Shown: positions 29,435-55,845 of the stretch, piece by piece
Numbering within the stretch: the stretch's first letter is position 1
Layout: every line of letters starts with the position of its first letter
Source of the DNA: Escherichia coli
GTDB lineage: Bacteria > Pseudomonadota > Gammaproteobacteria > Enterobacterales > Enterobacteriaceae
DNA: 64,000 nucleotides
Assembly: GCF_003334305.1 (NCBI RefSeq)
Contig: NZ_QOWS01000013.1
Direction: 5' to 3' (one strand)
Program-made: the position numbers and the translations under genes
The notes under the pieces: model-generated
Seen by the model: only the letters and a program-made list of their open reading frames with translations
Database searches by the model: none
What the model was told of the DNA's origin: nothing

Positions 29435-29612
29435 ATCGTGAACCTCCCCCAGGCTCTGCGGGAACCCCACTTCCGAACCGCTGCGCACGGGCACAGAAAG
29501 AGCGTGGCGACGGGGTTTGCGTGTCATACGCGCGCCTCGCATTCGCCCCCTTGTTGTCCTTTTCGCATCGGTTAATACGGTGAAGAGGGGATCTCAATTA
29601 CTGCATAAATAT

Positions 29613-29631
29613 GATGAGCAGGCTGCTCATC
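29613..29631. repeat. Perfect 19-bp palindrome GATGAGCAG-G-CTGCTCATC in the gltB upstream/leader region
   Basis: 9-bp arms are exact reverse complements; ~180 bp upstream of the gltB ATG at 29434. Confidence 0.6.
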
Positions 29632-30108
29632 CAGAAAGCTTCCAGCGGATTTCCAACTTATCGGGAAAGCTGATACAGGTCAAATGGCAAGCTTATTGGT
29701 ACAGAAATGTGCTTTAGCGCAAAATTCTTTATTAAATGACTGAAATTAAAATAGATTTTATCTTTAAGGCTAAAAGGGAAGTCGTTAGAGAAACAGTCAA
29801 TTCCTGACTGTCATAAAGGCGTGTTAACCCTTATCCTGCCTTGAACTGACGAGAAAACCAGCATTTTATACTGCCTTAATTGGTAATGACGTTTCATGCT
29901 ACTGTTTTTGCCTAAAATCCATAAGGAGATAAAAAAATCTGACACAAGATAAGCAAAAGTGATTTATGTGATTATGCATGAAATTTCGGTAATTTTGATT
30001 GATTATGCAGTTGATAAAAGCAGGCCGGGACGATTGATCCAGGTCATCGCAGAATTGAGCTAAAAATGGCAGGCTTTGGCCTCTTTTCAAGGCGCGGTCT
30101 ATCAGATT

Positions 30109-31038
30109 ATGCAGTTACAGAAATTAGTCAATATGTTTGGTGGTGATCTCACCCGTCGTTATGGGCAAAAGGTGCATAAGCTGACGCTGCACGGCGGTTT
30201 TAGCTGCCCTAACCGTGACGGTACCATCGGGCGTGGTGGCTGCACATTCTGTAATGTGGCCTCGTTTGCCGATGAAGCGCAGCAGCATCGTTCCATTGCC
30301 GAGCAACTGGCGCACCAGGCGAATTTAGTTAACCGCGCTAAACGCTATCTGGCCTACTTTCAGGCGTATACCAGCACCTTTGCGGAAGTTCAGGTGCTGC
30401 GTTCTATGTATCAGCAGGCGGTGAGCCAGGCCAATATTGTCGGTTTGTGTGTTGGTACCCGCCCGGACTGCGTGCCGGATGCGGTGCTGGATCTGCTTTG
30501 CGAATATAAGGACCAGGGTTACGAAGTGTGGCTGGAACTGGGGCTACAAACCGCCCACGACAAAACACTGCATCGCATCAACCGCGGCCATGATTTTGCC
30601 TGTTATCAGCGTACAACCCAGCTGGCACGTCAGCGCGGGCTGAAGGTGTGTTCCCACTTAATTGTCGGCCTGCCTGGCGAAGGGCAGGCTGAATGTTTGC
30701 AAACGCTGGAGCGAGTGGTTGAAACCGGCGTGGACGGCATAAAGCTGCATCCGCTGCATATTGTGAAAGGCAGCATTATGGCGAAAGCCTGGGAAGCGGG
30801 GCGTTTGAACGGTATTGAACTGGAGGATTACACGCTCACTGCCGGAGAAATGATTCGCCATACGCCACCGGAAGTGATCTACCACCGCATTTCCGCCAGC
30901 GCCCGTCGCCCGACGCTGCTTGCTCCGCTGTGGTGCGAAAATCGATGGACGGGAATGGTCGAGCTGGATCGCTATCTGAATGAACATGGCGTACAGGGAT
31001 CGGCGCTGGGACGTCCGTGGCTACCTCCAACGGAGTAG
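30109..31038 (+). CDS. yhcC: Radical SAM protein YhcC
   Basis: ORF-track ORF 30076..31038 (TTG) trimmed to ATG 30109 (MQLQKLVNMFGG...), 309 aa; Cys motif CPNRDGTIGRGGCTFC; matches YhcC. Confidence 0.9.
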   Translation: MQLQKLVNMFGGDLTRRYGQKVHKLTLHGGFSCPNRDGTIGRGGCTFCNVASFADEAQQHRSIAEQLAHQANLVNRAKRYLAYFQAYTSTFAEVQVLRSMYQQAVSQANIVGLCVGTRPDCVPDAVLDLLCEYKDQGYEVWLELGLQTAHDKTLHRINRGHDFACYQRTTQLARQRGLKVCSHLIVGLPGEGQAECLQTLERVVETGVDGIKLHPLHIVKGSIMAKAWEAGRLNGIELEDYTLTAGEMIRHTPPEVIYHRISASARRPTLLAPLWCENRWTGMVELDRYLNEHGVQGSALGRPWLPPTE

Positions 31039-31133
31039 GTCGTTGAGGGGAATTCCGCATTTCTCACACAATTTATAACGTAACTGTCAGAATTGGGTAT
31101 TATTGGGGCAGGTTGTCGTGAAGGAATTCCCTA

Positions 31134-33470
31134 ATGAAGCAAATTCGTCTGCTGGCGCAGTATTATGTTGACCTGATGATGAAGTTAGGTCTGGTGCGCT
31201 TCTCAATGTTGCTGGCGCTGGCCCTCGTCGTTCTTGCCATTGTGGTACAAATGGCGGTAACCATGGTGCTGCATGGTCAGGTCGAAAGCATTGATGTTAT
31301 TCGTTCTATCTTCTTTGGTTTGCTGATTACGCCGTGGGCGGTCTACTTTCTATCGGTGGTCGTCGAGCAACTGGAGGAGTCACGACAACGTCTGTCACGG
31401 CTGGTGCAAAAACTGGAGGAGATGCGCGAGCGCGATTTGAGCCTCAACGTTCAGTTAAAAGATAATATTGCCCAGCTAAATCAGGAAATTGCCGTTCGTG
31501 AAAAAGCGGAAGCAGAACTGCAGGAAACCTTCGGCCAACTGAAAATTGAAATCAAAGAGCGCGAAGAGACACAAATTCAGCTCGAGCAGCAATCCTCATT
31601 CTTACGTTCCTTCCTTGATGCTTCACCCGACCTGGTTTTTTATCGTAACGAAGATAAAGAGTTTTCCGGCTGTAACCGCGCGATGGAGCTGCTGACCGGA
31701 AAAAGCGAAAAACAACTGGTTCACCTGAAACCTGCTGATGTTTACTCACCGGAAGCCGCCGCAAAAGTCATTGAAACCGATGAAAAAGTGTTCCGTCATA
31801 ATGTGTCACTGACCTATGAACAGTGGCTGGATTACCCGGACGGGCGCAAAGCCTGCTTTGAAATCCGTAAAGTGCCGTACTACGACCGCGTGGGTAAACG
31901 TCACGGTTTGATGGGCTTTGGTCGCGACATTACCGAGCGTAAGCGGTATCAGGATGCGCTTGAACGGGCCAGCCGCGACAAAACGACGTTTATTTCCACC
32001 ATCAGTCACGAATTGCGTACACCGCTGAACGGTATCGTCGGCCTGAGCCGTATTCTGCTGGATACCGAACTCACCGCCGAGCAGGAAAAATATCTCAAAA
32101 CTATCCATGTTTCGGCCGTCACGCTGGGGAATATCTTCAACGATATTATCGACATGGATAAGATGGAACGGCGCAAGGTCCAGCTTGATAATCAACCGGT
32201 TGATTTCACCAGCTTCCTTGCCGATCTGGAAAATCTCTCCGCATTGCAGGCGCAACAAAAAGGATTGCGCTTTAACCTGGAGCCGACGCTGCCATTACCG
32301 CATCAGGTCATTACCGACGGGACGCGTTTACGGCAGATCCTGTGGAACCTCATCAGTAACGCCGTCAAATTCACCCAGCAAGGCCAGGTTACCGTGCGTG
32401 TGCGCTACGATGAAGGCGATATGCTGCATTTTGAAGTGGAAGACTCTGGTATCGGCATTCCGCAGGATGAGCTGGATAAAATTTTCGCCATGTATTACCA
32501 GGTGAAAGACAGTCATGGCGGTAAACCTGCCACCGGCACCGGTATTGGTCTGGCCGTTTCTCGTCGTCTGGCGAAAAATATGGGCGGCGATATTACGGTT
32601 ACCAGCGAACAGGGCAAAGGTTCAACCTTTACGTTGACGATCCACGCACCGTCGGTAGCAGAAGAGGTCGATGATGCGTTTGATGAAGACGATATGCCTT
32701 TACCGGCGCTGAATGTGCTGCTGGTGGAAGACATTGAACTGAACGTGATTGTTGCGCGTTCTGTGCTGGAAAAATTAGGTAACAGCGTTGATGTCGCCAT
32801 GACCGGCAAGGCGGCGCTGGAGATGTTTAAACCGGGCGAATACGACCTGGTGTTGCTGGATATTCAGTTGCCAGATATGACCGGGCTGGATATCTCTCGT
32901 GAACTGACGAAGCGTTATCCGCGCGAGGATTTACCGCCGCTGGTGGCCTTAACCGCTAACGTGCTGAAAGACAAACAAGAGTACCTCAATGCTGGAATGG
33001 ATGATGTGCTGAGTAAGCCGCTTTCGGTTCCGGCGCTAACCGCGATGATCAAGAAATTCTGGGATACCCAGGATGATGAGGAGAGTACGGTGACGACAGA
33101 AGAGAACAGTAAATCAGAAGCATTGCTCGATATTCCCATGCTGGAACAGTATCTCGAACTTGTAGGACCGAAGCTGATCACCGACGGGTTAGCGGTGTTT
33201 GAGAAGATGATGCCGGGCTATGTCAGCGTGCTGGAGTCGAATCTGACGGCGCAGGATAAAAAAGGCATTGTAGAGGAAGGACATAAAATTAAAGGTGCGG
33301 CGGGGTCAGTGGGGTTACGCCATCTGCAACAGCTGGGTCAGCAAATTCAGTCTCCGGACCTTCCTGCCTGGGAAGATAACGTCGGTGAATGGATTGAAGA
33401 GATGAAAGAAGAGTGGCGTCACGACGTAGAAGTGCTGAAAGCGTGGGTGGCAAAAGCCACTAAAAAATGA
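31134..33470 (+). CDS. arcB: Aerobic respiration control sensor kinase ArcB
   Basis: 778-aa ORF with two TM segments, PAS, HisKA (ISHELRTPLN), receiver and HPt domains; matches ArcB. Confidence 0.96.
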   Translation: MKQIRLLAQYYVDLMMKLGLVRFSMLLALALVVLAIVVQMAVTMVLHGQVESIDVIRSIFFGLLITPWAVYFLSVVVEQLEESRQRLSRLVQKLEEMRERDLSLNVQLKDNIAQLNQEIAVREKAEAELQETFGQLKIEIKEREETQIQLEQQSSFLRSFLDASPDLVFYRNEDKEFSGCNRAMELLTGKSEKQLVHLKPADVYSPEAAAKVIETDEKVFRHNVSLTYEQWLDYPDGRKACFEIRKVPYYDRVGKRHGLMGFGRDITERKRYQDALERASRDKTTFISTISHELRTPLNGIVGLSRILLDTELTAEQEKYLKTIHVSAVTLGNIFNDIIDMDKMERRKVQLDNQPVDFTSFLADLENLSALQAQQKGLRFNLEPTLPLPHQVITDGTRLRQILWNLISNAVKFTQQGQVTVRVRYDEGDMLHFEVEDSGIGIPQDELDKIFAMYYQVKDSHGGKPATGTGIGLAVSRRLAKNMGGDITVTSEQGKGSTFTLTIHAPSVAEEVDDAFDEDDMPLPALNVLLVEDIELNVIVARSVLEKLGNSVDVAMTGKAALEMFKPGEYDLVLLDIQLPDMTGLDISRELTKRYPREDLPPLVALTANVLKDKQEYLNAGMDDVLSKPLSVPALTAMIKKFWDTQDDEESTVTTEENSKSEALLDIPMLEQYLELVGPKLITDGLAVFEKMMPGYVSVLESNLTAQDKKGIVEEGHKIKGAAGSVGLRHLQQLGQQIQSPDLPAWEDNVGEWIEEMKEEWRHDVEVLKAWVAKATKK

Positions 33471-33582
33471 CCCCGGCTAGACCGGGGTGCGCGAATACTG
33501 CGCCAACACCAGGGAAATCTTGGCTGCGCCGTAAATTATTATGATGAGTTACAAGGGCACAGCACTGTTTTTCAGGCCGCAC
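33462..33582 (-). ncRNA. arcZ: ArcZ small RNA (RyhA/SraH)
   Basis: Minus-strand sequence GTGCGGCCTGAAAAACAGTGCTGTGCCC...GGCGCAGTATTCGCGCACCCCGGTCTAGCCGGGGTCATTTTTT matches ArcZ as I recall it, including the terminator hairpin and T-tract; its 3' end overlaps the arcB stop codon. Confidence 0.8.
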
Positions 33583-33699
33583 GCAGTTAAGATAGCAAAA
33601 CTTAAATGATTTGTTACATGAATCAGTTAAATGTGTGATGCGTACCATTTTTATTAAAAAAATTAATGTGTTTCAGTCAATTGCGAAAGGATGATCACA

Positions 33700-34353
33700 A
33701 TGAAGAAAATTGGCGTAATTCTGAGCGGATGCGGCGTCTATGACGGTTCTGAAATTCATGAAGCGGTGTTGACGTTGTTAGCTATTTCACGCAGCGGTGC
33801 GCAGGCGGTCTGCTTTGCACCGGATAAGCAGCAGGTTGATGTTATCAACCATTTAACTGGCGAAGCGATGACGGAAACGCGCAACGTGCTGATTGAAGCG
33901 GCACGAATAACGCGCGGTGAAATCCGTCCTCTGGCCCAGGCCGATGCCGCTGAACTGGATGCGTTGATTGTGCCGGGGGGGTTTGGCGCGGCGAAGAATT
34001 TAAGCAATTTTGCCACTCTTGGTAGCGAATGCACCGTTGACCGTGAATTAAAGGCGCTGGCACAAGCGATGCATCAGGCCGGAAAACCGCTTGGTTTTAT
34101 GTGTATTGCCCCGGCGATGCTGCCGAAAATTTTCGATTTCCCGCTGCGTTTGACCATCGGTACTGATATCGATACCGCAGAAGTGCTGGAAGAGATGGGC
34201 GCGGAGCATGTGCCCTGTCCTGTCGATGATATCGTGGTTGATGAAGACAATAAGATTGTCACCACCCCAGCATATATGCTGGCGCAGAACATTGCAGAAG
34301 CGGCGAGCGGCATTGATAAGCTGGTTTCCCGCGTGCTGGTTCTGGCTGAATGA
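33700..34353 (+). CDS. elbB: Glyoxalase ElbB (DJ-1/PfpI family)
   Basis: ORF-track ORF 33691..34353 trimmed to ATG 33700 ([13 protein letters not shown]...), 217 aa; matches ElbB. Confidence 0.9.
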
Positions 34354-35078
34354 GTAAAAGCCGCTTAACGGTGTTTAGTTTCGTTCGCCGTTTTCTTTTG
34401 CGGTTAATGGTTGTCCTCGCCGTTTTCTGGGGCGGGGGCATCGCGTTGTTTAGTGTTGCGCCTGTTCCCTTCTCAGCGGTAATGGTCGAGCGACAGGTCA
34501 GCGCCTGGCTGCATGGCAATTTTCGTTACGTGGCACATTCTGACTGGGTCAGTATGGATCAAATCTCGCCGTGGATGGGACTGGCGGTGATTGCCGCAGA
34601 AGATCAGAAATTTCCTGAGCACTGGGGCTTTGATGTCGCTTCCATTGAGAAAGCCCTGGCGCACAACGAGCGCAATGAAAACCGTATTCGCGGTGCTTCA
34701 ACGATTTCTCAGCAGACGGCCAAAAATCTCTTTTTATGGGATGGGCGTAGCTGGGTACGAAAAGGGCTGGAAGCTGGATTAACGCTGGGGATAGAAACAG
34801 TCTGGAGCAAAAAGCGTATCCTGACGGTTTACCTGAATATCGCCGAATTTGGCGACGGTGTGTTTGGCGTCGAAGCTGCGGCACAACGTTATTTCCACAA
34901 ACCCGCGAGCAAACTTACCCGGTCGGAAGCTGCATTACTGGCAGCTGTATTACCTAATCCACTTCGTTTCAAAGTCTCCTCGCCATCGGGCTACGTGCGT
35001 AGCCGTCAGGCGTGGATTTTACGGCAGATGTATCAGTTAGGCGGTGAGCCGTTTATGCAACAACACCAGCTGGATTAA
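34350..35078 (+). CDS. mtgA: Monofunctional peptidoglycan glycosyltransferase
   Basis: 242-aa ORF with N-terminal TM segment and transglycosylase motifs ([12 protein letters not shown]); overlaps elbB stop by 4 bp; matches MtgA. Confidence 0.94.
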
Positions 35079-35707
35079 GCTTCGCGCGAAGTGAGGGCCA
35101 GCGTTTTGCTCTCACGAGGTTGCAGATCTTTCTGCAGGGCAATAGCCAGCGCCGGTTGGGCGATAAATCGTTTCCATAACCGCTCTTGCTTACGCAGACA
35201 ACACCACTTCGACCAGGTCGCCAGTGGAATCAATGTACTTTCACCAATGTTGTCACAGACGACCGGGATAACCTCTGACTCACTGATGCGGTGACAGAGG
35301 ATATTCTGCGGCTTCAGCGACATCGTCACGATACGGTTATCCTGCAAATAACGCTTCAGCTGTTTCAGTAGCTGGCGCAGTTGTGCAATGTCTTCTTCGT
35401 AACGGCATTGTTCAGCAAATTCGGTCAGCGTAATGGAGGGTTTGCCGTCAAAATCTGCAATCACATCGTAGACATAACCGGTTCCGCAATCCGTCTCAAC
35501 GGTACCGTGATAGCGCGGTATTCCACTCCAGTCTTTTAACCGGCGACCAAGATGCGCGTAGTACTTTAACTCACGGCGGATCTCTTTATCGCCACCATCG
35601 CCACGATGGTAGACAATCTTGATACAGCGTTGGGCATCTTCCGGATGCGCATAACATTTCCGATGTCTTCCGGTGCCCAGGGGACTTTGTTCAGATAAGC
35701 GAATCAT
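35075..35707 (-). CDS. yrbL: Uncharacterized protein YrbL (PhoP-regulated)
   Basis: ORF-track ORF 35075..35764 trimmed to ATG 35707 ([24 protein letters not shown]...), 210 aa; matches YrbL. Confidence 0.88.
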
Positions 35708-35757
35708 GCCATCTCCTGGAAATATTTTCTGACGATCTCCAGTATGGTCGATTAACT

Positions 35758-35774
35758 TAAACAAAACCTAAACA
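35758..35774 (-). promoter_or_regulatory. PhoP box (direct repeat TGTTTA-N5-TGTTTA) upstream of yrbL
   Basis: Minus-strand TGTTTAGGTTTTGTTTA lies 51-67 bp upstream of the yrbL ATG; yrbL is a known PhoPQ-activated gene. Confidence 0.6.
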
Positions 35775-35920
35775 ATGCCTCTTAAGGTTTTCTTAAGGTT
35801 CTTCTGAAAGTGAAAAGCGCACAAAATGTACAAATGACGTTGATTGAGAACGATTTCAGTACGTGATTTTCTTATTGTCGGGGGGAGTTTGAAGGGAGTT
35901 GTATGTCAAAGTGATGAAGA

Positions 35921-36193
35921 TTAATCTTCATCAAAACCAGAGTTAAAGAGGGCGATAACGGCGGCCAGTGCTTCCTCTTCCTGTGGGCCGGTCGCTTCAA
36001 CTTCAATCTGCCGTCCTTTGGCAGAATCCAACATCAGCAGCGCAATAACGCTGTTGGCTTCGGCCTCGGTGCCTTCGTCATTACGTAACAGCACTTCAGC
36101 GTCAAAACCCTGCATTAATTCAAACAGCTTCATTGCAGGCCGGGCATGCATGCCCAGCTTGTTTGTGATTTCAACAGTTTGCTTGACGGTCAT
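35921..36193 (-). CDS. npr: Nitrogen-PTS phosphocarrier protein NPr
   Basis: 90-aa HPr-like ORF (…[10 protein letters not shown]…); matches NPr/PtsO. Confidence 0.94.
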
Positions 36194-37044
36194 GGTTTAC
36201 GTTTTTCCAGCGTACGATGGCGTGACTGGACGTTTTTACCGCGCGAGCGGAAGTAGTCTGCCAGTTGCTCTGCAATATACACCGAACGGTGCTTTCCGCC
36301 GGTACAACCAATGGCGACCGTCAAGTAGCTACGGTTGTTGGTTTCCAGCATAGGTAACCATAGTTCAAGATAGCTTCGCGTCTGGTAGATAAAATTGTGT
36401 ACTTCTGTGTGGCGGTCGAGGAACGCGGCGACAGGTTTATCAAGACCTGTCATTGGACGCAGTTTCGGATCCCAGTGCGGGTTCGGCAAGAAGCGCACGT
36501 CAAAGACGTAATCTGCATCGATAGGGATACCGTGTTTGAAGCCGAAAGACTCAAAGACCATGGTCAGTTCGCGTTCACGTTTACCCAGCAGACGGGTACG
36601 CAGCATTTCAGCCAGCTCGTGAACGGACATTTCTGAGGTATCGACAATCAGATCCGCTCGCGAACGCAGAGGCTCCAGCAAATCGCTTTCTTTGTCGATA
36701 GCACTTTCCAGCGACAGGTTTTTGCTGGAAAGCGGATGCAGTCGGCGCGTGTCACTGTAACGACGAATTAAGGTATTACGGTCGGCATCCAGGAACAGTA
36801 GTTGCGGTGAGAAAGCGTCAGGCAGGTTACTCATCGCCTGTTCGAATATTTCTGGTGACTCCGGCATATTACGAACATCAATGCTGACGGCGGCAGAAAT
36901 CTCGCGATCGGCCAGAGTTCGAGCCAGATCGGGTAACAACACTACGGGAAGGTTATCCACGCAGTAAAAACCCATATCTTCCAGCGCACGCAGGGCGACA
37001 GATTTACCTGAACCTGAACGTCCGCTGACGATCATCAGTACCAT
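36190..37044 (-). CDS. rapZ: RNase adaptor protein RapZ
   Basis: 284-aa ORF with Walker A (GRSGSGKS); overlaps npr start by 4 bp; matches RapZ/YhbJ. Confidence 0.95.
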
Positions 37045-37089
37045 GTACTGTTTCTCCTCACAACGTCTAAAAGAGACATTACCGAATAA

Positions 37090-37581
37090 CTACGCTTCAT
37101 CCGGAGTACCTTCGGTATCCGTAATGATTTGATACAGCTCTTCATCGCTCTGGGCTGCGCGTAAACGGCGGCAGATGGTTTTGTCCGCCAGACGTTTCGC
37201 CACCAGCGACAGAGTATGCAGGTGCGTTTTAGTTTGGTCTGCCGGCACCAGCAGGGCAAAAAGTAAGTCCACCGGTTGGTTGTCGATGGCATCGAAAGCT
37301 ATAGGCGTTTCGAGCTGAACGAAAACGCCAACGGCGCGCAGAGTATCTTCTTCCAGTTTGCCATGCGGAATGGCAATACCATTGCCGATACCGGTACTGC
37401 CCATTTTTTCCCGCGTCAGGATAGCTTCAAAAACCACCTGAGGCGGCAGGCTAAGTTGTTTCGCCGCCAGCTCGCTGATGATTTCCAGGGCGCGTTTTTT
37501 GCTCTGACAGTGGACGCGGCTTCGCGTACATTCCCTGTTAAGAACACTGCTAAGCTGTAGAGTTGTATCATTATTTGTCAT
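37090..37581 (-). CDS. ptsN: Nitrogen-PTS enzyme IIA (PtsN)
   Basis: ORF-track ORF 37090..37605 trimmed to ATG 37581 (MTNNDTTLQL...), 163 aa; matches PtsN. Confidence 0.94.
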   Translation of the reverse strand: MTNNDTTLQLSSVLNRECTRSRVHCQSKKRALEIISELAAKQLSLPPQVVFEAILTREKMGSTGIGNGIAIPHGKLEEDTLRAVGVFVQLETPIAFDAIDNQPVDLLFALLVPADQTKTHLHTLSLVAKRLADKTICRRLRAAQSDEELYQIITDTEGTPDEA

Positions 37582-37698
37582 AATTTCACCTAAGAACCTG
37601 CCCACTCAAACAGTGGAACAGGCTCGGAGCATTAACCGTACAAATGGCCCGTTGTGCCGCACAACAGGCCGCCATGCACATGCTAATTGCCCGGACAA

Positions 37699-37986
37699 TT
37701 AGTGTTGTTTCAGTTTATCTTTATGTTTGGTCAACTGGCGTGCCAGCTTATCAATTAAGCCATCAATGGCAGCGTACATGTCCTGACCTTCCGCGCTGGC
37801 ATGAATTTCACCACCGTTTACATGCAGTGTTGCATCTGAGGTGTGGGTGACTTTCTCCACTTTCAGAACAACATAGACCTGGTTGATTCGGTCAAAATAT
37901 TGCTCAAGTTTGGCAAATTTGGCTGTAACAAATTCGCGCAGTGCCTCGGTGATCTCGACGTTATTTCCGGTAATGTTGAGCTGCAT
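37699..37986 (-). CDS. hpf: Ribosome hibernation promoting factor
   Basis: ORF-track ORF 37699..38070 trimmed to ATG 37986 (MQLNITGNNVEI...), 95 aa; matches Hpf. Confidence 0.94.
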   Translation of the reverse strand: MQLNITGNNVEITEALREFVTAKFAKLEQYFDRINQVYVVLKVEKVTHTSDATLHVNGGEIHASAEGQDMYAAIDGLIDKLARQLTKHKDKLKQH

Positions 37987-38008
37987 AGTGTCTTCCTTAT
38001 CGGTTGGG

Positions 38009-39442
38009 TCAAACGAGCTGTTTACGCTGGTTTGACGGCGGAATGGATAAAGACTCTCGGTACTTCGCAACAGTGCGGCGTGCCACCATGATACCTTGTT
38101 CCGACAGCAAAGAGGTTAACTTGCTGTCGCTCAACGGTTTCGCTGGGTTTTCCGCCGCGATTAATTTCTTCACCAGCGCACGAATCGCCGTGGAGGAAGC
38201 TTCGCCGCCGCCCTCGGTATTGACGTGACTGGAAAAGAAATACTTCAGTTCAAAAATGCCTCGTGGACTATGCAGGTATTTTTGCGTGGTCACGCGAGAT
38301 ATCGTCGATTCATGCATTTCGACAGCCTGGGCGATATCGGCCAGTACCATCGGTTTCATATATTCTTCGCCTTGCTCAAAGAAGGCTTGCTGCTGTTCAA
38401 CGATACAGCGACTCACGCGCAGTAGCGTATCGTTACGGCTTTCCAGACTCTTGATCAACCATTTGGCATCCTGCAGATTGCTGCGGATAAACTGGCTGTC
38501 ACCATCATTGCGAGCGTTATTGCACATCGAGGCGTAGTGCTGGTTGATTTGCAGACGCGGAATGCTGTCACTGTTGAGTTCTACTGTCCAGTGACCGTTA
38601 TGCTTACGCACCAGCACATCTGGAATGACATACTCAGGTTCGCCAGTCTGGATCGACTGCCCGGGGCGCGGATCGAGCGACTGGATCAGATTGACGGCTT
38701 CTTTCAGCACATCTTCTTTCAGACGCGTGACGCGCATTAAAGTGCGGAAGTCGTGATTGGCTAACAGATCGAGATGATCGCTAATGATCAATCTGGCCTC
38801 TTCCAGCCACGGCGTGGTTTTATCGAATTGGGAGAGTTGGATTAGCAGGCAGTCACGCAGATCTTTTGCCGCTACACCGACCGGATCAAACCGTTGGATC
38901 CGCTTAAGGACGGCTTCAACCTCGTCGATGTCGATCTCTTCATCGCCCATACTTTCGAGAATATCTTCCAGCGGGACAGTCAGATAACCGGTGTCATCAA
39001 CGGCATCGACGATAGAGGTAGCAATAGCGCGGTCAGTGTCGGAAAACGGTGTCAGCTCGACCTGCCACATCAGGTAATCCTGCAAGGTCTGCGTCGTTTC
39101 GCCCTGATAGACCGGCAGCTCATCGTCAATGTAGTCACCGCTGGTGCCGGATGGTGTACCAGCGGTGTAAATGGTGTCCCAACTGGCATCGAGCGGCAGC
39201 TCTTCCGGCATCTCTTTTTGTTCGAGCGCGTCGGCGGTGTCCAGCGTTTCACTGTCTTGCGTTTCGCGGGTGTCGATTTCTTCATGAGTGTCGATTTGCT
39301 CAAGCAGCGGATTACTCTCCAGCGCCTGCTGTAGCTCCTGCTGAAGTTCCAGCGTCGACAACTGCAACAGACGAATTGCCTGTTGGAGCTGTGGCGTCAT
39401 CGCCAGTTGTTGGCTAAGCCTGAGTTGCAAACCTTGCTTCAT
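38009..39442 (-). CDS. rpoN: RNA polymerase sigma-54 factor
   Basis: 477-aa ORF with Gln-rich N-terminus and C-terminal RpoN box; matches RpoN. Confidence 0.96.
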
Positions 39443-39489
39443 GTTCAGAATCGTACTCTCCTGCTAAAACGTCGTAAACTTCTACCCTA

Positions 39490-40215
39490 TCAGAGTCTGA
39501 AGTCTTCCCCAAGGTATACACGCTTAACGTGTTCGTCTTGTAAGATTTCTGTAGGCGTGCCGTGGGCGATCAAATGCCCCTGACTGACGATATAAGCGCG
39601 TTCACAAACCGCCAGTGTTTCACGCACGTTGTGGTCAGTGATCAGCACGCCCAGGCCGCTGTCGCGCAGGTGCTCAATGATGCGTTTAATGTCGATAACC
39701 GAGATCGGGTCAACACCGGCAAACGGTTCGTCGAGCAGAATAAATTTCGGATTCGCAGCCAGTGCGCGGGCAATTTCTACACGGCGACGTTCACCCCCGG
39801 AGAGTGACTGCCCCATGCTGTCACGCAGGTGCTCAATGTGAAACTCTTCCATCAGCTCGTTCGCGCGGTCTTCACGTTGTTCAGCAGACAAGTCGTCACG
39901 AATTTGCAGTACCGCCATCAGGTTATCGTAAACGCTGAGGCGACGGAAAATGGAGGCTTCCTGTGGCAGATAGCCGATACCGCGGCGCGCGCGTGCATGC
40001 AGAGGCAGCAGACTGATATCGTCATCATCAATAATGATGTTGCCCGCATCGCGCGGCACAATGCCTACAACCATATAGAAAGTGGTGGTCTTACCGGCAC
40101 CGTTTGGCCCCAGCAGACCGACAATTTCCCCGGAGTTGACGGTCAGGCTGACGTCTTCTACCACGCGACGGCCTTTATAGGCTTTTGCAAGGTTCTTTGC
40201 AGTTAATGTTGCCAT
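39490..40215 (-). CDS. lptB: LPS export ABC transporter ATPase LptB
   Basis: 241-aa ABC ATPase ([18 protein letters not shown]); matches LptB. Confidence 0.96.
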
Positions 40216-40221
40216 AACGAA

Positions 40222-40779
40222 TTAATTACCCTTCTTCTGTGCCGGGGTCTGGCCTTTGTTGTTTTTATCCTGCAGCTGCGACGGCACCAGAACGGTGGTT
40301 ACGCGCTTGCCTTTGTCGCTGAAAGCCTGCATTTTCTGCTCTTTTACCAGGTAAGTGATCTTATCGCCCTTAATGTTGCTATCGACCTGCTGCAGATAAG
40401 CATTACCCGTCAGAACGACAAAATCTTTTGCCAGTTCGTAGTGCATCTGGGAAGCGTGACCTTCAACGGGTTTACCGTTGTCCTGCATCTGGTAGAACGT
40501 TGCCGGTTTACCGTAGCCGTCAATCACTTCTTTACCTTGTTCGCCGCCCGGACGGGTAACGACCACTTTGTCGGCATTAATTTTGATGGTGCCCTGGGTG
40601 ACGATGACATTACCGGTAAAGGTAACCACGTTGCCTTGCATATCAAGAGATTGCTGGTCCGATTCAATGTGGATCGGCTGATCAGTGTCTCCGGTTACGG
40701 CAAATGCCGGAATGCTGGCGGCCAGAAGTGAGCTGGCAAGCACAAGATTAAGGCTGAGTTTGTTTGTTTTGAATTTCAT
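40222..40779 (-). CDS. lptA: Periplasmic LPS transport protein LptA
   Basis: ORF-track ORF 40222..40800 trimmed to ATG 40779 (MKFKTNKLSLNL...), 185 aa; start lies inside the lptC 3' end; matches LptA. Confidence 0.93.
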   Translation of the reverse strand: MKFKTNKLSLNLVLASSLLAASIPAFAVTGDTDQPIHIESDQQSLDMQGNVVTFTGNVIVTQGTIKINADKVVVTRPGGEQGKEVIDGYGKPATFYQMQDNGKPVEGHASQMHYELAKDFVVLTGNAYLQQVDSNIKGDKITYLVKEQKMQAFSDKGKRVTTVLVPSQLQDKNNKGQTPAQKKGN

Positions 40780-41323
40780 AGGATGTTCTAACCTTTTCAA
40801 TCAGCTCGGCGTTCTTGCTGCGTAAGTTGCCGCGCATTTTCAGACCGCTGGAGTTAAATGTTGTTCCGTATAACGTGACGAGGTCTTCAGAGGTAACATC
40901 CTGAGTCACCAGATTGATCTGCGCGTTATCCGTCGTGATTCTGCGAAGTTGAGAGTCTGGCACAAGTGCGTTGACTTCAACGTGTCCATATAAATAGAGC
41001 ATCCGGTCATTGGTCAGCTTGGCTTTATCTGCTTTTACGGACCATGTCGGGATTTTATCCTTATCAAACGTGGTAAGTACCGGCTGCGTAAACCACGAAA
41101 CGGCCTGATCGGAATAATATTCAACGTGTTGAGCAATCAATCGATAGCTTAGTGCCCCTTCTGGGTTATAGACGAGCGTGTCCGTATGCTCGCTTTTATA
41201 GGTGGGATCATTGTTGTTGACGACCACCTGGGCGGTATCGTCTTTTTCGGCCATATTAATGCCGATCATCACCAGAACCGCCAGTGATAGCACAATGATA
41301 ACCCAACGTCTGGCTTTACTCAT
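40748..41323 (-). CDS. lptC: LPS transport protein LptC
   Basis: 191-aa ORF with N-terminal TM anchor; matches LptC. Confidence 0.94.
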   Translation of the reverse strand: MSKARRWVIIVLSLAVLVMIGINMAEKDDTAQVVVNNNDPTYKSEHTDTLVYNPEGALSYRLIAQHVEYYSDQAVSWFTQPVLTTFDKDKIPTWSVKADKAKLTNDRMLYLYGHVEVNALVPDSQLRRITTDNAQINLVTQDVTSEDLVTLYGTTFNSSGLKMRGNLRSKNAELIEKVRTSYEIQNKQTQP

Positions 41324-41886
41324 ATCGATTGCCCTTTGGCTTCATCCAGTTTGCCCTGCGCCAGGAGTAATAAGTCGCAAACTTCGCGCACTGCGCCACG
41401 ACCGCCAGCAATGCGCGTCACGTAATCGGCGCGCGGGATCAACAGTGGATGCGCATCGGCCACGGCGACGCTTAAACCCACTTTTTCCATTACCGGCCAG
41501 TCGATGAGATCATCGCCGACATAAGCCACATTTTCCGGGGCAATCGCCAGTTTTTCCAGCAAATCGCTAAAGGCGATCAGTTTGTTTGACTGCCCCTGAT
41601 ACAAGTGAGTGATCCCCAATGTGGCACAACGATCTTCTACCAGTTTAGCCTTTCGCCCGGTAATGATAGCGACTTCAATATCAGAGGTGAGCGCACAACG
41701 AATGCCATAACCGTCACGAACATTGAACGCTTTCAGCTCTTCGCCGTTATTGCCCATATAAATCAGGCCATCTGACAGTACGCCATCAACGTCGAGGATC
41801 AGCAGACGAATGTTCTCTGCTTTTGCCATAACGTCGGCGCTGACAGGGCCGTAACAGGTCGCAAGCGACGCACCTGCTTTGCTCAT
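41320..41886 (-). CDS. kdsC: KDO-8-phosphate phosphatase
   Basis: 188-aa HAD-family ORF (ILDVDGVL); matches KdsC. Confidence 0.95.
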   Translation of the reverse strand: MSKAGASLATCYGPVSADVMAKAENIRLLILDVDGVLSDGLIYMGNNGEELKAFNVRDGYGIRCALTSDIEVAIITGRKAKLVEDRCATLGITHLYQGQSNKLIAFSDLLEKLAIAPENVAYVGDDLIDWPVMEKVGLSVAVADAHPLLIPRADYVTRIAGGRGAVREVCDLLLLAQGKLDEAKGQSI

Positions 41887-41906
41887 TGTTGTTTATCCTT
41901 GAATCT

Positions 41907-42893
41907 TTACACTACGCCTGCACGCAGTAAATCATGCATATGTAACACACCGAGTAAATGGTCGCCATCGGCAACCATCACGGAGGTGATATGGCGGGAC
42001 TGCATTAAGTTCAGTGCCTCAACGGCCAGAATGCCAGGGCGCACACGTATTCCCCCCGGCGTCATCACATCGGCAATACTTAACTGACGAACATCCACGC
42101 CCATATCGAAGACACGGCGTAAATCACCGTCGGTAAAGATGCCTTCAATCATCATATTGTCATCGCAAATGACAGTCATACCAAGATTTTTGCGGGTAAC
42201 TTCCAGCAATGCGTCACGCAGACTGGCCGTTTTCTTAACATGCGGGATCTCATCGCCCGTATGCATAATATCGTTTACGCGCAGCAGAAGTTTACGACCC
42301 AGTGCGCCGCCTGGGTGTGAGAGCGCAAAATCTTCAGCAGTAAAGCCGCGTGCTTTTAACAGCGCGACAGCGAGGGCATCGCCCATAACCAGCGTGGCGG
42401 TGGTGCTGCTGGTCGGTGCCAGCCCTAACGGACAGGCTTCTTTCGCTACTTTAACACACAGATGCACATCTGCGGCGCGCGCCATGCTGCTCTCCGGGCG
42501 ACCGGTGATGCAGATTAACGGTACGTGAAGACGCTTAAGCACTGGAATTAAGGCCGTGATTTCGCTGGATTCACCTGAGTTAGAGATAGCAATCACCACA
42601 TCCTGTGGGGTAACCATGCCTAAATCACCATGCGCGGCTTCACCAGGATGGACGAAAAATGAAGGTGTACCGGTGCTGGCAAACGTTGCCGCCATTTTGC
42701 GCCCGATGTGCCCCGATTTCCCCATCCCCATGACGACAACTTTCCCTTTACACCAGAACATCTTTTCACAAGCAAGCGTGAAATTCTGATTGATGTATTG
42801 ATCAAGCTCCGCCAGGCATTCACGTTCAATCGCCAGGACTTCTTTACCTGCTTGCTGAAAGTCAAAACCCGGTTGTAACTCTACGTGCGACAT
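41907..42893 (-). CDS. kdsD: D-arabinose-5-phosphate isomerase
   Basis: ORF-track ORF 41907..42914 trimmed to ATG 42893 (MSHVELQPGFDFQQ...), 328 aa, SIS plus CBS domains; matches KdsD. Confidence 0.94.
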   Translation of the reverse strand: MSHVELQPGFDFQQAGKEVLAIERECLAELDQYINQNFTLACEKMFWCKGKVVVMGMGKSGHIGRKMAATFASTGTPSFFVHPGEAAHGDLGMVTPQDVVIAISNSGESSEITALIPVLKRLHVPLICITGRPESSMARAADVHLCVKVAKEACPLGLAPTSSTTATLVMGDALAVALLKARGFTAEDFALSHPGGALGRKLLLRVNDIMHTGDEIPHVKKTASLRDALLEVTRKNLGMTVICDDNMMIEGIFTDGDLRRVFDMGVDVRQLSIADVMTPGGIRVRPGILAVEALNLMQSRHITSVMVADGDHLLGVLHMHDLLRAGVV

Positions 42894-42906
42894 AATGCGT
42901 TTCCAG

Positions 42907-43884
42907 TTATTCAACGAGTATTGGCGATAACCAGTACAACATCGCCAGCCATACGATAAATCCGCCAGTTAATAATACCCCTACACCACGGCCCGGTTGC
43001 GGGGAGCGCCGCCAGCACAGCAACGCAAAAATAATGCTCACCAGCAACATCACGCTGTAGTCACGACTGTACGCCAGTGGATCAATCTCTCCTGGCGTTA
43101 TCAGCGCGGGTAAACCCAACACGATGACAATATTAAAAATGTTTGCGCCAATGATATTTCCGACAGCAATGTCGTTTTCACCTTTGCGAACCCCCGCTAT
43201 TGCGGTTGCCAGTTCCGGCAGGCTGGTTCCGATAGCAATTGCCGTCAGACCCATCGTCAACTCGCTGATGGCAAAGTAATTCGCCAGCACCGTGGCGTTA
43301 TCAACCACCATCCGCGTGGCCACTGGCATGATGATAAGCGCAATGCCGAGCCATAAAAACGCGACGGGCAATCCGCCGTCACGCGGCAGCTCTGCAAGCT
43401 GCTCTCTGGTCAGGCTGTCAGTCCCCTGACGTTCAGCCTGACGTGCAAGTTTAACAATGAACAGCAGCCATAGCACAGCCAGAAAGAGGAGAAAGATACC
43501 ATCGCTTCGACTAAGTTGTCCGTCATAGAGTACGGAACCGGCCACCACGCTGACCAACAACATTAAGGGTAATTCACGGCGTAGAACATCAGAATGGACG
43601 GTAAAAGGACGAACCAGCGCAGCCAGACCGAGGATCAGCAATATATTGATAATGTTTGAGCCGAGGGCTGTACCAACGGCTAAATCGCGTTGTTCGTGCA
43701 GAGACGCGGCAAGCGAGACGATGATTTCTGGTAACGATGTACCAATACTGACCACCGTCATGCCGATGATCAGCGGCGGGATGCCAAAGGTTCGGCAAAG
43801 AATAGACGCGGCAAAAACCAGGCGGTCGGCACTGTAAACGACCAAAAGTAAACCAACAATTAACAGTGCCGTAGCTAAAAGCAT
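42907..43884 (-). CDS. yrbG: Ca2+/Na+ antiporter-family inner membrane protein YrbG
   Basis: 325-aa polytopic membrane ORF; matches YrbG. Confidence 0.93.
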   Translation of the reverse strand: MLLATALLIVGLLLVVYSADRLVFAASILCRTFGIPPLIIGMTVVSIGTSLPEIIVSLAASLHEQRDLAVGTALGSNIINILLILGLAALVRPFTVHSDVLRRELPLMLLVSVVAGSVLYDGQLSRSDGIFLLFLAVLWLLFIVKLARQAERQGTDSLTREQLAELPRDGGLPVAFLWLGIALIIMPVATRMVVDNATVLANYFAISELTMGLTAIAIGTSLPELATAIAGVRKGENDIAVGNIIGANIFNIVIVLGLPALITPGEIDPLAYSRDYSVMLLVSIIFALLCWRRSPQPGRGVGVLLTGGFIVWLAMLYWLSPILVE

Positions 43885-44093
43885 CTAACGTCCTTTCTTC
43901 AGGTATACTCGCCGGTCCGCTGAAGATTTTCAGAAAGCCGTAACGGATTCTTAATTTTGACTTTATGCGGCTAAAAAGTAAAACAAATGCCAGCTTTCGC
44001 TAACCACGGCGGGTAATATTCTGTAAATATGTTGGGTTCAAGGTTAAATTGAGCGCCATGCTTAGAAAATCAACGCAAGACGAAGGGTGAATT

Positions 44094-45693
<1,600 letters not shown>

Positions 45694-45697
45694 GTTC

Positions 45698-46249
45698 ATG
45701 CAAACGAAAAAAAATGAAATTTGGGTGGGTATCTTTTTATTAGCAGCACTGCTGGCGGCGCTGTTTGTTTGCCTGAAGGCGGCGAACGTGACGTCCATAC
45801 GTACTGAACCGACCTACACGCTTTATGCGACGTTCGATAACATTGGCGGCCTGAAAGCGCGCTCTCCGGTCAGTATTGGTGGCGTTGTTGTGGGTCGGGT
45901 GGCGGATATTACGCTGGACCCGAAAACCTATCTGCCGCGCGTAACGCTGGAAATTGAACAACGTTATAACCACATTCCAGATACCAGTTCGCTGAGCATT
46001 CGTACTTCCGGCCTGCTGGGGGAACAATATCTGGCATTAAACGTCGGTTTTGAAGACCCGGAACTGGGGACTGCTATCCTGAAGGATGGCGATACAATTC
46101 AGGACACTAAGTCTGCGATGGTGCTGGAAGATCTCATTGGTCAGTTCCTTTACGGTAGTAAAGGCGATGACAATAAGAATAGTGGCGATGCGCCAGCTGC
46201 TGCGCCAGGTAATAATGAAACCACTGAACCTGTGGGTACAACGAAATAA
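45698..46249 (+). CDS. mlaD: MCE-domain phospholipid-binding protein MlaD
   Basis: ORF-track ORF 45683..46249 trimmed to ATG 45698 (MQTKKNEIWVG...), 183 aa; matches MlaD. Confidence 0.94.
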   Translation: MQTKKNEIWVGIFLLAALLAALFVCLKAANVTSIRTEPTYTLYATFDNIGGLKARSPVSIGGVVVGRVADITLDPKTYLPRVTLEIEQRYNHIPDTSSLSIRTSGLLGEQYLALNVGFEDPELGTAILKDGDTIQDTKSAMVLEDLIGQFLYGSKGDDNKNSGDAPAAAPGNNETTEPVGTTK

Positions 46250-46902
<653 letters not shown>

Positions 46903-46903
<1 letters not shown>

Positions 46904-47196
46904 TGAGCGAGTCACTGAGCTGGATGCAGACGGGTGACACGCTGGCGTTATCCGGAGAGCTGGATCAGGACGTTCTGCTACCGCTTTGGGAAATGCGTGA
47001 GGAAGCGGTGAAGGGGATTACCTGCATCGATCTTAGCCGTGTGTCCCGCGTGGATACGGGTGGACTGGCACTGCTGCTCCATCTTATCGATCTGGCGAAA
47101 AAGCAGGGCAACAACGTGACGCTTCAGGGGGTAAACGACAAAGTGTATACCCTCGCGAAATTGTATAATTTGCCTGCTGATGTTCTGCCTCGTTAA
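46903..47196 (+). CDS. mlaB: STAS-domain protein MlaB
   Basis: ORF-track ORF 46807..47196 trimmed to ATG 46903 (MSESLSWMQTGD...), 97 aa; start overlaps mlaC stop (TAATG); matches MlaB. Confidence 0.92.
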
Positions 47197-47355
47197 ATTT
47201 TTTCAGGCCGGATATGGCGTTAACCGCCTGTCCGGCAAACCTGCCTGCAAGTCGAGCCTTGTCTGATTTATCAGCGAGGCTTTTTGCTTATTTATGCCAG
47301 CGCAACTTTGCTCTAAGATGTTTCGCTGGTTTATTAACTGATGATTGAAGATCCC

Positions 47356-47610
47356 ATGGAAAATAATGAAATTCAGAGCGTGTTGATGAACGCTCTCTCC
47401 CTCCAGGAAGTCCACGTTTCCGGCGATGGCAGCCACTTTCAGGTTATTGCCGTGGGTGAGTTGTTTGACGGCATGAGTCGGGTTAAAAAACAGCAGACGG
47501 TCTATGGCCCGCTGATGGAATATATTGCGGATAACCGCATTCATGCTGTGTCGATCAAAGCGTATACCCCTGCGGAGTGGGCGCGCGATCGCAAACTGAA
47601 CGGCTTTTGA
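47356..47610 (+). CDS. ibaG: BolA-family acid stress protein IbaG
   Basis: ORF-track ORF 47341..47610 trimmed to ATG 47356 ([13 protein letters not shown]...), 84 aa; matches IbaG/YrbA. Confidence 0.9.
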
Positions 47611-47664
47611 GCTATGGGCGATTCGCCGGTAGCGGATATGAATTGTTAACTGAGAACAAACTAA

Positions 47665-48924
<1,260 letters not shown>

Positions 48925-48971
48925 TCGTCTGAGAGCTGGCAGCCCCGTTCGCGGGGCTACCGCCAGACCAC

Positions 48972-49250
48972 TCATTTTTTCGGTTTAGTGTAGCTACGCA
49001 TCAACTGCGTTCTGTCGATAAACTCATGGGTCTGCGGATCATGGTAGCGTGATGGCCAGATAACCCAGGGGTCAGTTCCCAGGGCTTTCGCAATAATCAT
49101 CTCTCCTTTCGGCCATGGGCGCGATAATGCGTTTGCCAGCGTTGAGGAACTCAAACCATTTCTGCGAGACTCCGCCGCCATTGACGTTCCCTTCTTGCGC
49201 AAACCCGCAATGATGTCAGCGGGATGCCAGTCAATGAAATTACTTTCCAT
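48972..49250 (-). CDS. sfsB: Ner-like DNA-binding protein SfsB (Nlp)
   Basis: 92-aa ORF; matches SfsB. Confidence 0.93.
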   Translation of the reverse strand: MESNFIDWHPADIIAGLRKKGTSMAAESRRNGLSSSTLANALSRPWPKGEMIIAKALGTDPWVIWPSRYHDPQTHEFIDRTQLMRSYTKPKK

Positions 49251-49477
49251 CTTTCCTCACTCCTTAAGTTAGTCGCTTTCATTCAGAACACTTCTTCTGT
49301 CGGGCATCACTATACTCCTGATGGCCTATTGATCTAAAAAGTTCCTGTAAAGAGTGTGAATATTCAGAATATATAAAGATTCATCGCCCTTTTTTTCAGG
49401 TGTTATAGCGCTGAATTAGTGTTTTTATGGAATTTACTGGAATCATCCCGCGCACTGCGCGGGATGAAGGGAGGGGA

Positions 49478-50449
49478 TTAACGATCGCGTTGAACAGCGA
49501 TGTGCGCGAGGCCGATGAGTGCTTCTCGCCAAGGGGTGTCCGGGAGCACCTGTAATGCTGCGATGGCTTTGTCTGCTTCTTCCTCGGCACGCTGACGCGT
49601 CCATTCAAGAGATCCACAAGCGTTCATTGCTTCCAGAACCGGTTCCAGAAGATGGCGACCGTTACCCTGTTCGATGGCGGTACGGATCATCTGTGCCTGT
49701 TCTGGTGTGCCATGATGCATCGCATGCAGCAGCGGCAGCGTCGGTTTACCTTCGTTCAGATCGTCGCCGACATTTTTACCTAACTGTTCGCCATCGGCAT
49801 TGTAATCGAGTAAATCGTCGATCAACTGGAAAGCAGTGCCGAGATAGCGCCCATAATCCTGCAGGCCTTTCTCCTCTTCCGGCGTACAGCCAGCCAGAAT
49901 CCCGGAACACTGCGCGGCAGCCTCAAACAGACGCGCGGTTTTGCTATAGATAACGCGCATGTAGTTTTCTTCAATGATGTCCGGATCGTTAACGTTCATC
50001 AGTTGCAGAACTTCACCTTCTGCGATGACGTTTACGGCTTCTGACATGACTTCCAGCACTTTGAGCGAACCGAGGCTGGTCATCATCTGGAACGCGCGGG
50101 TATAAATAAAATCGCCTACCAGCACGCTGGCGGCATTGCCAAATGCAGCGTTGGCGGTAGCTTTACCCCTGCGCATATCTGATTCATCCACAACGTCGTC
50201 GTGCAGCAGAGTCGCCGTGTGGATAAACTCGATCAGGGCAGCAATGGTGACATGCGCATTTCCCTCATAGCCAACAGCTCGTGCAGCCAGTACAGCAATC
50301 ATCGGACGAATACGTTTACCGCCGCCGCTGACGATGTAATAGCCTAACTGATTGATCAGCTGGACGTCGGAATTAAGCTGCTCAAGGATTGCCGCATTAA
50401 CACCCGCCATATCTTGCGCGGTTAACTCATTGATTTTTTCTAAATTCAT
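49478..50449 (-). CDS. ispB: Octaprenyl diphosphate synthase
   Basis: 323-aa ORF with polyprenyl synthase DDxxD motifs (LLHDDVVDESD, QLIDDLLDY); matches IspB. Confidence 0.95.
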   Translation of the reverse strand: MNLEKINELTAQDMAGVNAAILEQLNSDVQLINQLGYYIVSGGGKRIRPMIAVLAARAVGYEGNAHVTIAALIEFIHTATLLHDDVVDESDMRRGKATANAAFGNAASVLVGDFIYTRAFQMMTSLGSLKVLEVMSEAVNVIAEGEVLQLMNVNDPDIIEENYMRVIYSKTARLFEAAAQCSGILAGCTPEEEKGLQDYGRYLGTAFQLIDDLLDYNADGEQLGKNVGDDLNEGKPTLPLLHAMHHGTPEQAQMIRTAIEQGNGRHLLEPVLEAMNACGSLEWTRQRAEEEADKAIAALQVLPDTPWREALIGLAHIAVQRDR

Positions 50450-50606
50450 CGCAAAAGCCGGGCTTTTCGCCCCGATTACCTTACTGTGAACAAAGGCAAC
50501 TTAGGGTTTATGGTTAGGAATATAGAGTGATTGTACTGAAAAAATGGCACAGATAAACGTTACCGTACAAGTTGTGTTTTTTTTCTTCGTGTATTGACTG
50601 TAGCAC

Positions 50607-50635
50607 TTGTCAAAGGCGTGCGTTTTGCGTAATAT
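50607..50635 (+). promoter_or_regulatory. Candidate sigma-70 promoter of rplU-rpmA
   Basis: TTGTCA (50607-50612), 17-nt spacer, TAATAT (50630-50635), ~70 nt upstream of the rplU ATG; hexamer match only. Confidence 0.35.
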
Positions 50636-50671
50636 TCGCGCCCTATTGTGAATATTTATAGCGCACTCTGA

Positions 50672-51297
<626 letters not shown>

Positions 51298-51323
51298 GTT
51301 TTTCGCGTCCCGGTAACGGATGA

Positions 51324-51352
51324 AAGCCCCGCAACACGTTGCGGGGCTTTTT
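51324..51352 (+). terminator. Rho-independent terminator after rpmA
   Basis: AGCCCCGCAA-cacg-TTGCGGGGCT followed by TTTT. Confidence 0.8.
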
Positions 51353-51423
51353 ACATTCGATAACCGGTAAAAATGCGCATGGTGCGACGTTAATCCGCAA
51401 ATGCGCTTTGCAGGGAATACGGT

Positions 51424-52389: not shown

Positions 52390-53577
<1,188 letters not shown>

Positions 53578-53582
53578 TCAGC

Positions 53583-53615
53583 AAAACCCCGGCCATGTGC
53601 CGGGGTTTCTTTTTG
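53583..53615. terminator. Bidirectional terminator between obgE and dacB
   Basis: AAAACCCCGGC-catgt-GCCGGGGTTTCTTTTT. Confidence 0.8.
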
Positions 53616-53616
53616 A

Positions 53617-55050: not shown

Positions 55051-55169
55051 AATCTCGCGCTAACAACCTGGAATCGAGCCGTCATACTACGGCGCAACGC
55101 CCTATAAAGTAAACGATGACCCTTCGGGAACTTCAGGGTAAAATGACTATCAAAATGTGAATTGTAGCT

Positions 55170-55203
55170 GACCTGGGACTTGTACCCGGGTCGGTATTTT
55201 TTT
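55170..55203 (+). terminator. Intrinsic terminator in the greA leader (3' end of the GraL leader RNA)
   Basis: GACCTGGG-acttgta-CCCGGGTC hairpin followed by GGTATTTTTTT, ~95 nt upstream of the greA ATG. Confidence 0.55.
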
Positions 55204-55297
55204 GCTTCTGGTCCCGGTGAGGAGTTATGCCGGGCAGGCCGAACAGCCGGGGTGGGTGAAGACTTGCCCCATCAGGAATATTCAAGAGGTATAACAA

Positions 55298-55774
<477 letters not shown>

Positions 55775-55814
55775 GAATTACCCAATACTCAAGATGTTGA
55801 TGTATTGTAAAGAA

Positions 55815-55845
55815 AGGAAAAAGGCCGCTATGCGGCCTTTTATCA
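55815..55845. terminator. Bidirectional terminator between greA and yhbY
   Basis: AAGGCCGC-tat-GCGGCCTT flanked by A-rich and T-rich runs. Confidence 0.65.

Follow-up and report, generated by a model that had tools for sequence, protein, structure and literature searches.

The window analysed here is a stretch of 64,000 nucleotides from Escherichia coli (contig NZ_QOWS01000013.1 of assembly GCF_003334305.1). Gene coordinates are those of the RefSeq annotation of the E. coli chromosome NZ_CP028747.1, transferred by exact end matches and checked for intact reading frames; this chromosome aligns to window positions 16101..64000 with 99.98% identity. The segment of interest contains the following features.

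41320..41886, minus strand, kdsC (RefSeq transfer)
40748..41323, minus strand, lptC coding sequence, 191 aa, ATG start, TAA stop at 40748..40750
40222..40779, minus strand, lptA coding sequence, 185 aa, ATG start at 40777..40779
39490..40215, minus strand, lptB (RefSeq transfer)
40748..40779, minus strand, lptC/lptA dual-coding overlap, 32 nt, out of frame

Across 40748..40779 the lptA frame is one off from the lptC frame, so that the shared nucleotides encode Tyr182 (last two bases) to Pro191 and the stop codon in LptC, and Met1 to Leu10 together with two bases of Asn11 in LptA. The NCBIfam equivalog NF008143 covers LptA residues 1–185 (368 bits) and NF008142 covers LptC residues 1–191 (364 bits), while the general LptC model TIGR04409 matches residues 6–182 and ends at a point that coincides with the lptA ATG. 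A 10-kb query around the junction produced matches in 5426/5426 complete E. coli genomes, many of them at 100%, and the 76-nt junction itself is identical in 5423 of the 5426. The window LptC differs by one residue from that of locus L002. The end-to-end matches to both NCBIfam models, the retention of the lptA ATG in 80/80 species loci (see below) and the identity of the junction within E. coli confirm that this is a genuine dual-coding co-directional overlap with two full-length products and not a chance open-reading-frame artefact. An earlier sequence-only reading of the window had placed the lptA start inside the 3′ end of lptC with 32 nt shared, and this is borne out at the RefSeq coordinates; comparison with the curated annotation, which had been proposed as a check, gives agreement for this overlap and for all of the others listed in that reading. 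In both searches of the 5426 genomes one extra copy of the region (window positions 36000–46000 and 40735–40810) was found on a plasmid-classed record.

The overlap is ordinary and already known. Its length of 32 nt is stated in PMC4986956, and the supplement of Huber 2023 (PMC10666635) lists the E. coli lptC/lptA distance as -32 and flags the products as subunits of one complex ('CMPLX yes'). The two genes belong to a six-cistron operon, yrbG-kdsD-kdsC-lptC-lptA-lptB, with a strong promoter, yrbGp (PMC4986956). The locus in the window is that of E. coli K-12 lptC (yrbK, b3199) and lptA (yhbN, b3200) described by the Polissi/Deho group, with the same 32 nt and the same operon; the window comes from a different E. 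coli strain and nothing of substance differs.

Conservation of the arrangement was surveyed with one genome per species (80 Enterobacteriaceae-type loci). The lptA ATG is kept in all 80. The two genes share 32 nt in 75 loci, 20 nt in three and 17 nt in two; in the shorter forms the lptC frame reaches its stop codon earlier. A natural change of lptC K187 to a stop codon is silent in lptA. The protein homologue search returned Enterobacteriaceae only, and more distant relatives were added from representative proteins and their contigs. In these relatives, which include Vibrionaceae and Aeromonas, the lptA ATG lies within the same LptC Tyr/Asn-Glu codons as in E. coli and LptC stops sooner, giving overlaps of 8–26 nt: 8 nt in Ca. 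Providencia siddallii, 14 nt in Aeromonas (RefSeq 175-aa form) and in relative locus L090, 17 nt in relative locus L089 (with the start at the Tyr-Glu ATG), 20 nt in Grimontia and 26 nt in Pantoea sp. Aalb. Since TIGR04409 ends at residue 182, where the lptA ATG sits, the overlap reads as a variable LptC C-terminal tail laid over a fixed lptA start. For the LptC@LptA pair of orthologous groups, Huber 2023 gives a median distance of -14 (q1 -23, q3 +1; n = 364 genomes), the 11th most negative in the table (PMC10666635 supplement). The pair LeuS@COG5468, in which COG5468 is a predicted lipoprotein with a role in LPS assembly, has the same median of -14 nt in Supplementary Table S4 of PMC10666635 and is therefore a second Lpt-related pair among the most consistently long overlaps.

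Several relatives depart from this arrangement. On two ~650-kb contigs in which LptA is named as that of Serratia symbiotica (L091:1-2004 and L092:1-2004), the order is lptC, lptB, a gap of ~190 nt and lptA, and the overlap has been lost by rearrangement. In an AT-rich relative (L083:1000-1503) LptC is called at only 159 aa, its end lying 21 nt 5′ of the lptA ATG, and the sequence 5′ of that ATG (gagttaattcaaaaggttaaaacttcat) is still clearly homologous to the invariant block of E. coli described below, which suggests that the 3′ end of lptC is frame-disrupted and that the upstream signals of lptA are retained. On a metagenome scaffold (L093:1501-2547) with the gene order kdsD-kdsC-[gene]-lptB-rpoN, a single 348-aa open reading frame contains both the LptC and the LptA (LptD_N) Pfam domains, with a signal-peptide-like stretch between the two parts; a second member of its cluster, of 351 aa, lies on another contig. 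This open reading frame could be a naturally occurring fusion of LptC to LptA; alternatively, it could result from a frame error where the two parts meet. In E. coli a programmed LptC-LptA frameshift finds no support, inspection of the overlap by eye having given no recognisable slippery site.

A normalised synonymous-codon entropy was calculated for both lptC and lptA from codon alignments covering 79 species. Two segments of the lptC 3′ end stand out.

40781..40873, minus strand, lptC codons 151–181, suppressed synonymous variation (entropy)
40787..40807, minus strand, near-invariant 21-nt block GAGCTGATTGAAAAGGTTAGA, lptC codons 173–179 (GAG CTG ATT GAA AAG GTT AGA)

The synonymous entropy of lptC is 0.76 over codons 11–150, falling to 0.41 over codons 151–181 and to 0.32 over codons 163–181; among the 236 other 31-codon blocks of the two genes, none falls below 0.58. 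Within the 21-nt block, five of the seven positions show no codon variation among the species with the major residue, and L174 and V178 use one codon in 97% and 92%, respectively. The third positions of the spacer codons T180 and S181, which precede the lptA ATG, vary freely. In the overlap itself, the frequent substitutions (F3S, K4R, T5I and L10R in LptA) are without exception synonymous in lptC and non-synonymous in lptA; lptA-synonymous changes are confined to those introducing an earlier stop into lptC. Thus, evolution of the overlap follows the lptC frame, with the n-region of the LptA signal peptide absorbing the changes, either through selection on the LptC tail or through selection on the A-rich initiation region. 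The invariant block probably corresponds to the lptA initiation region. The synonymous constraint extends for ~95 nt 5′ of the ATG, which is more than a ribosome-binding site would need and fits an embedded leader and promoter, so that the segment 40781..40873 probably carries the lptA 5′ leader and one or more internal promoters. Together, the synonymous suppression at the end of lptC and the lptC-frame substitutions in the overlap agree with the published internal promoters. Relative to the literature, the collapse of synonymous variation over the last ~40 lptC codons is a modest addition.

The candidate expression signals of lptA that lie in this region are as follows.

40792..40795, minus strand, weak Shine–Dalgarno-like AAGG, 11–12 nt 5′ of the lptA ATG (position -13)
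40840..40867, minus strand, candidate sigma-E type promoter GGAACAA-N16-TCTGA (motif match)

The AAGG is the only Shine–Dalgarno-like element and lies inside the 21-nt block; its bases are invariant in the 79 species, and its duplex with the anti-Shine–Dalgarno sequence (-3.4 kcal/mol) ranks 36th of 45 window genes. Folding of 111 nt surrounding the lptA start gave -22.4 kcal/mol versus -19.7 ± 3.1 for shuffled sequences (z = -0.89), and no stable structure masking the lptA ribosome-binding site was found in this comparison. Two promoters inside lptC and 5′ of lptA have been reported: lptAp1, which is sigma-E dependent, and lptAp2 (PMC4986956, PMC8727689, PMC4072712). According to the same papers, lptAB are expressed from the lptC-internal promoter or promoters when lptC is untranscribed, and in araBp-lptC depletion strains without arabinose their expression is below the level given by the operon promoter; lptAp1-p2 alone give lower and sometimes insufficient expression (PMC4986956). 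This lower expression could result from weaker transcription, from loss of coupling or from both. A sigma-E promoter is expected to combine a GGAACTT-like -35 element with a TCTGA- or TCAAA-like -10 element at a spacing of about 16 nt. The motif GGAAC-N18-TCTGA has one exact match in the 64 kb, with 0.05 expected, and this match is a candidate for lptAp1. Its key bases fall at lptC third positions, the exact motif is found in 5/79 species loci and it is not kept outside Escherichia. Two other sigma-E placements, GCAACTT (-51..-45) followed by GCTGA 18 nt on and TCAAA at +8..+12, were rejected by eye for wrong spacing. A simple sigma-70 scan found no promoter on the minus strand near lptA, and Rfam gave no family in the lpt region of the window.

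These observations are very probably explained by a genuine, conserved and published overlap in which the expression signals of lptA are embedded in the end of lptC and lptA initiation is independent of lptC translation. The lptA ATG is built into the Tyr182-Glu183 codons of LptC, at the end of the broadly conserved LptC domain, and LptC continues for nine more codons to its stop. In this mechanism the last ~100 nt of lptC would hold the lptA signals, namely the AAGG in the invariant block, an A-rich unstructured initiation region, and lptAp1 and lptAp2. LptA could then be made by two routes, from the long operon mRNA as an internal cistron or from shorter transcripts that begin within lptC as their first cistron, with its initiation independent of ribosomes translating lptC. 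Ribosomes that end lptC 30 nt 3′ of the lptA ATG may add reinitiation or local unfolding. De novo initiation probably dominates at lptA.

The sequence-only reading had taken the overlaps in the window as an indication of translational coupling within the respective operons. It named seven overlaps in addition to lptC/lptA, all of which are present at the RefSeq coordinates.

41320..41323, minus strand, kdsC/lptC, 4-nt ATGA overlap
36190..36193, minus strand, rapZ/npr, 4-nt ATGA overlap
21146..21149, plus strand, nanE/nanK, 4-nt ATGA overlap
22018..22021, plus strand, nanK/nanQ (yhcH), 4-nt ATGA overlap
34350..34353, plus strand, elbB/mtgA, 4-nt ATGA overlap
46903..46903, plus strand, mlaC/mlaB, 1-nt TAATG overlap
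59943..59950, plus strand, folP/glmM, 8-nt overlap (ATGAGTAA)

The list is complete for co-directional pairs. Overlaps are found in 8/36 (22%) of the co-directional neighbour pairs tallied between 16.1 and 64 kb, and no co-directional overlap is annotated in the region collinear with the first 16 kb of the window. Genome-wide, 24% of unidirectional pairs in E. coli lie within -8..+6 (PMC10666635). Because the 22% seen here resembles this figure, the chain of short overlaps is ordinary, and the description of the arrangement as 'expected' holds at the usual E. coli rate. The Shine–Dalgarno energies of the downstream genes of overlapping pairs (n = 8) did not differ significantly from those of other window genes (median -3.9 versus -5.7 kcal/mol; Mann–Whitney p = 0.13).

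Other features were noted in the window. The convergent genes mtgA (plus strand) and yrbL (minus strand) overlap by 4 nt at 35075..35078, with TTAA common to both stops; this overlap is absent from the earlier list. Both mtgA (34350–35078) and dacB (53617–55050) are intact open reading frames in the window and are annotated as frameshifted pseudogenes in the reference strain A28, and these frameshifts account for the 3-nt difference in length between the window and this near-identical strain. Between nanQ and gltD are, as in the annotation of the reference strain, a small transposase open reading frame (22558–22863, minus strand) and a truncated DUF1016 pseudogene (~22950–23360), which look like the remnant of a mobile element. 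Gathering-level Rfam matches were obtained for the ArcZ sRNA (33475–33582, minus strand), which adjoins arcB, for the greA leader (55081–55202, plus strand) and for a tRNA following secG (61855–61938, plus strand), which is annotated as tRNA-Leu in the reference record.

In E. coli reporters, overlapping start/stop geometry supports termination-reinitiation, according to PMC6728339 and PMC10666635. Reinitiation is steeply distance-dependent, with +38 nt removing 80–100% of it, and a stop-start range of -8..+10 is treated as predictive of coupling (PMC10666635). The seven other pairs in the window (-4, -4, -4, -4, -4, -1 and -8) lie inside this range and lptC/lptA (-32) lies outside it. The geometry of the seven is exactly that of the canonical overlaps (ATGA, TAATG/TGATG and NTGNNTGA), so that the claim of coupling is reasonable for them, as judged from a geometry that couples in reporters, and weak for lptC/lptA, which sits at -32 and has promoters of its own. 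The lptC/lptA pair shares with the canonical overlaps its place among co-directional operon neighbours, often subunits of one complex, and is unlike them in that the start lies 30 nt 5′ of the stop and the downstream gene has its own promoters. A likeness is also found in the coat/lysis overlap of the RNA phage fr (34 nt), where the downstream start also lies a few tens of nucleotides 5′ of the stop in another frame and on which the scanning model of reinitiation is based (PMC10666635, PMC12548453). The phage lysis gene is cited as a case of termination-dependent restart; lptAB, by contrast, are expressed without lptC transcription.

It is unlikely that lptA is mainly coupled, with ribosomes ending at the lptC UAA backing up ~30 nt and restarting at the lptA AUG and so fixing the LptC:LptA ratio. 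Such coupling would suit two genes that are co-transcribed from yrbGp and whose products are interacting partners in one complex (PMC4986956; PMC10666635 supplement), the conservation of their overlap and the weak, distant Shine–Dalgarno element of lptA, a feature often seen in coupled downstream genes, and the phage fr overlap provides a precedent for a restart 5′ of the stop (PMC10666635). However, the distance of -32 lies outside the range treated as predictive, reinitiation in reporters falls steeply with distance, and the lptC-internal promoters drive lptAB without lptC transcription. Since lptAB are expressed when lptC is untranscribed, lptA initiation does not need lptC translation. The overlap also varies from 8 to 32 nt by lineage, and in the Serratia symbiotica loci lptA no longer adjoins lptC, which argues against a fixed stop-start geometry. 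Ribosomes terminating at lptC may contribute to lptA expression on the long operon mRNA. None of the open papers searched links lptA, lptC and translational coupling.

The 21-nt block and the frozen overlap might instead form a dedicated control element, in the form of a site for an sRNA or protein or of a device by which ribosomes terminating at lptC set LptA:LptC under LPS-transport stress. We regard this as slightly more doubtful than dominant coupling. If true, part of the conservation of the LptC tail codons would reflect selection at the nucleotide level rather than at the protein level.

A role for interference appears improbable. Elongating lptC ribosomes would cover the lptA ribosome-binding site and limit de novo initiation, and the internal promoters would provide lptC-free transcripts under envelope stress. 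The entire lptA initiation region (-28 to +32) does lie within translated lptC and a stress-responsive sigma-E promoter inside lptC has been reported (PMC4986956), but arabinose-induced lptCAB raises LptC, LptA and LptB together (PMC8727689), which does not suggest strong occlusion.

The last alternative concerns the lptA start itself. As judged from the sequence and its homologs, lptA starts at the ATG at 40779..40777. The LptA signal peptide comprises residues 1–27 (40699..40779, minus strand). In solved structures the mature protein starts at residue 27/28, so that all 27 residues of the signal peptide must be translated. The upstream TTG at 40798..40800 (minus strand), 21 nt 5′ of the ATG, would make the overlap 53 nt. 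It is directly preceded by an in-frame TGA, has no Shine–Dalgarno element (-2.2 kcal/mol), and its seven extra codons show radical changes (His/Pro/Leu/Arg) exactly where lptC changes synonymously. The downstream GTG at 40741..40743 (minus strand; LptA Val13), 4 nt past the lptC stop, also has no Shine–Dalgarno element (+1.2 kcal/mol), and initiation there would leave the signal peptide without its Lys-rich n-region. At this codon different species have GTG, ATG, GCC, ATT, CTG, GTT and others, many of which are not start codons; ATG stands here in the two Salmonella loci and a few further species. It is scarcely credible that the true start is this GTG, which would leave no overlap, or the TTG, even though the latter is used by some LptA database entries, given that the ATG is universal in the survey, that the basic n-region lost from the GTG has to exist and that alignment to the curated full-length LptA model begins at residue 1. 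The TRAINSPOTTER N-terminomics and INRI-seq supplements were also searched for the lptA initiation site, and lptA is absent from both. The overlap does affect start-codon choice, as the sequence-only reading anticipated: some database entries begin at the TTG (P0007, LKRLEPH-MKSK...; P0109), and Aeromonas LptA entries are divided between two ATGs. In one E. coli LptA variant of 197 aa (P0001), 12 residues of the mature protein are duplicated in tandem (KPATFYQMQDNG repeated).

For annotation, the lptA start should stay at the ATG inside lptC, and the TTG-extended database entries would be wrong. Coupling is not to be assumed for lptC/lptA, since -32 is not the geometry of demonstrated coupling. 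The locus is well studied and essential, and its overlap, of a textbook type for operons, matters little beyond annotation hygiene. As groups working on the locus already note, deleting or recoding the 3′ end of lptC affects the start, the ribosome-binding region and the internal promoters of lptA as well.
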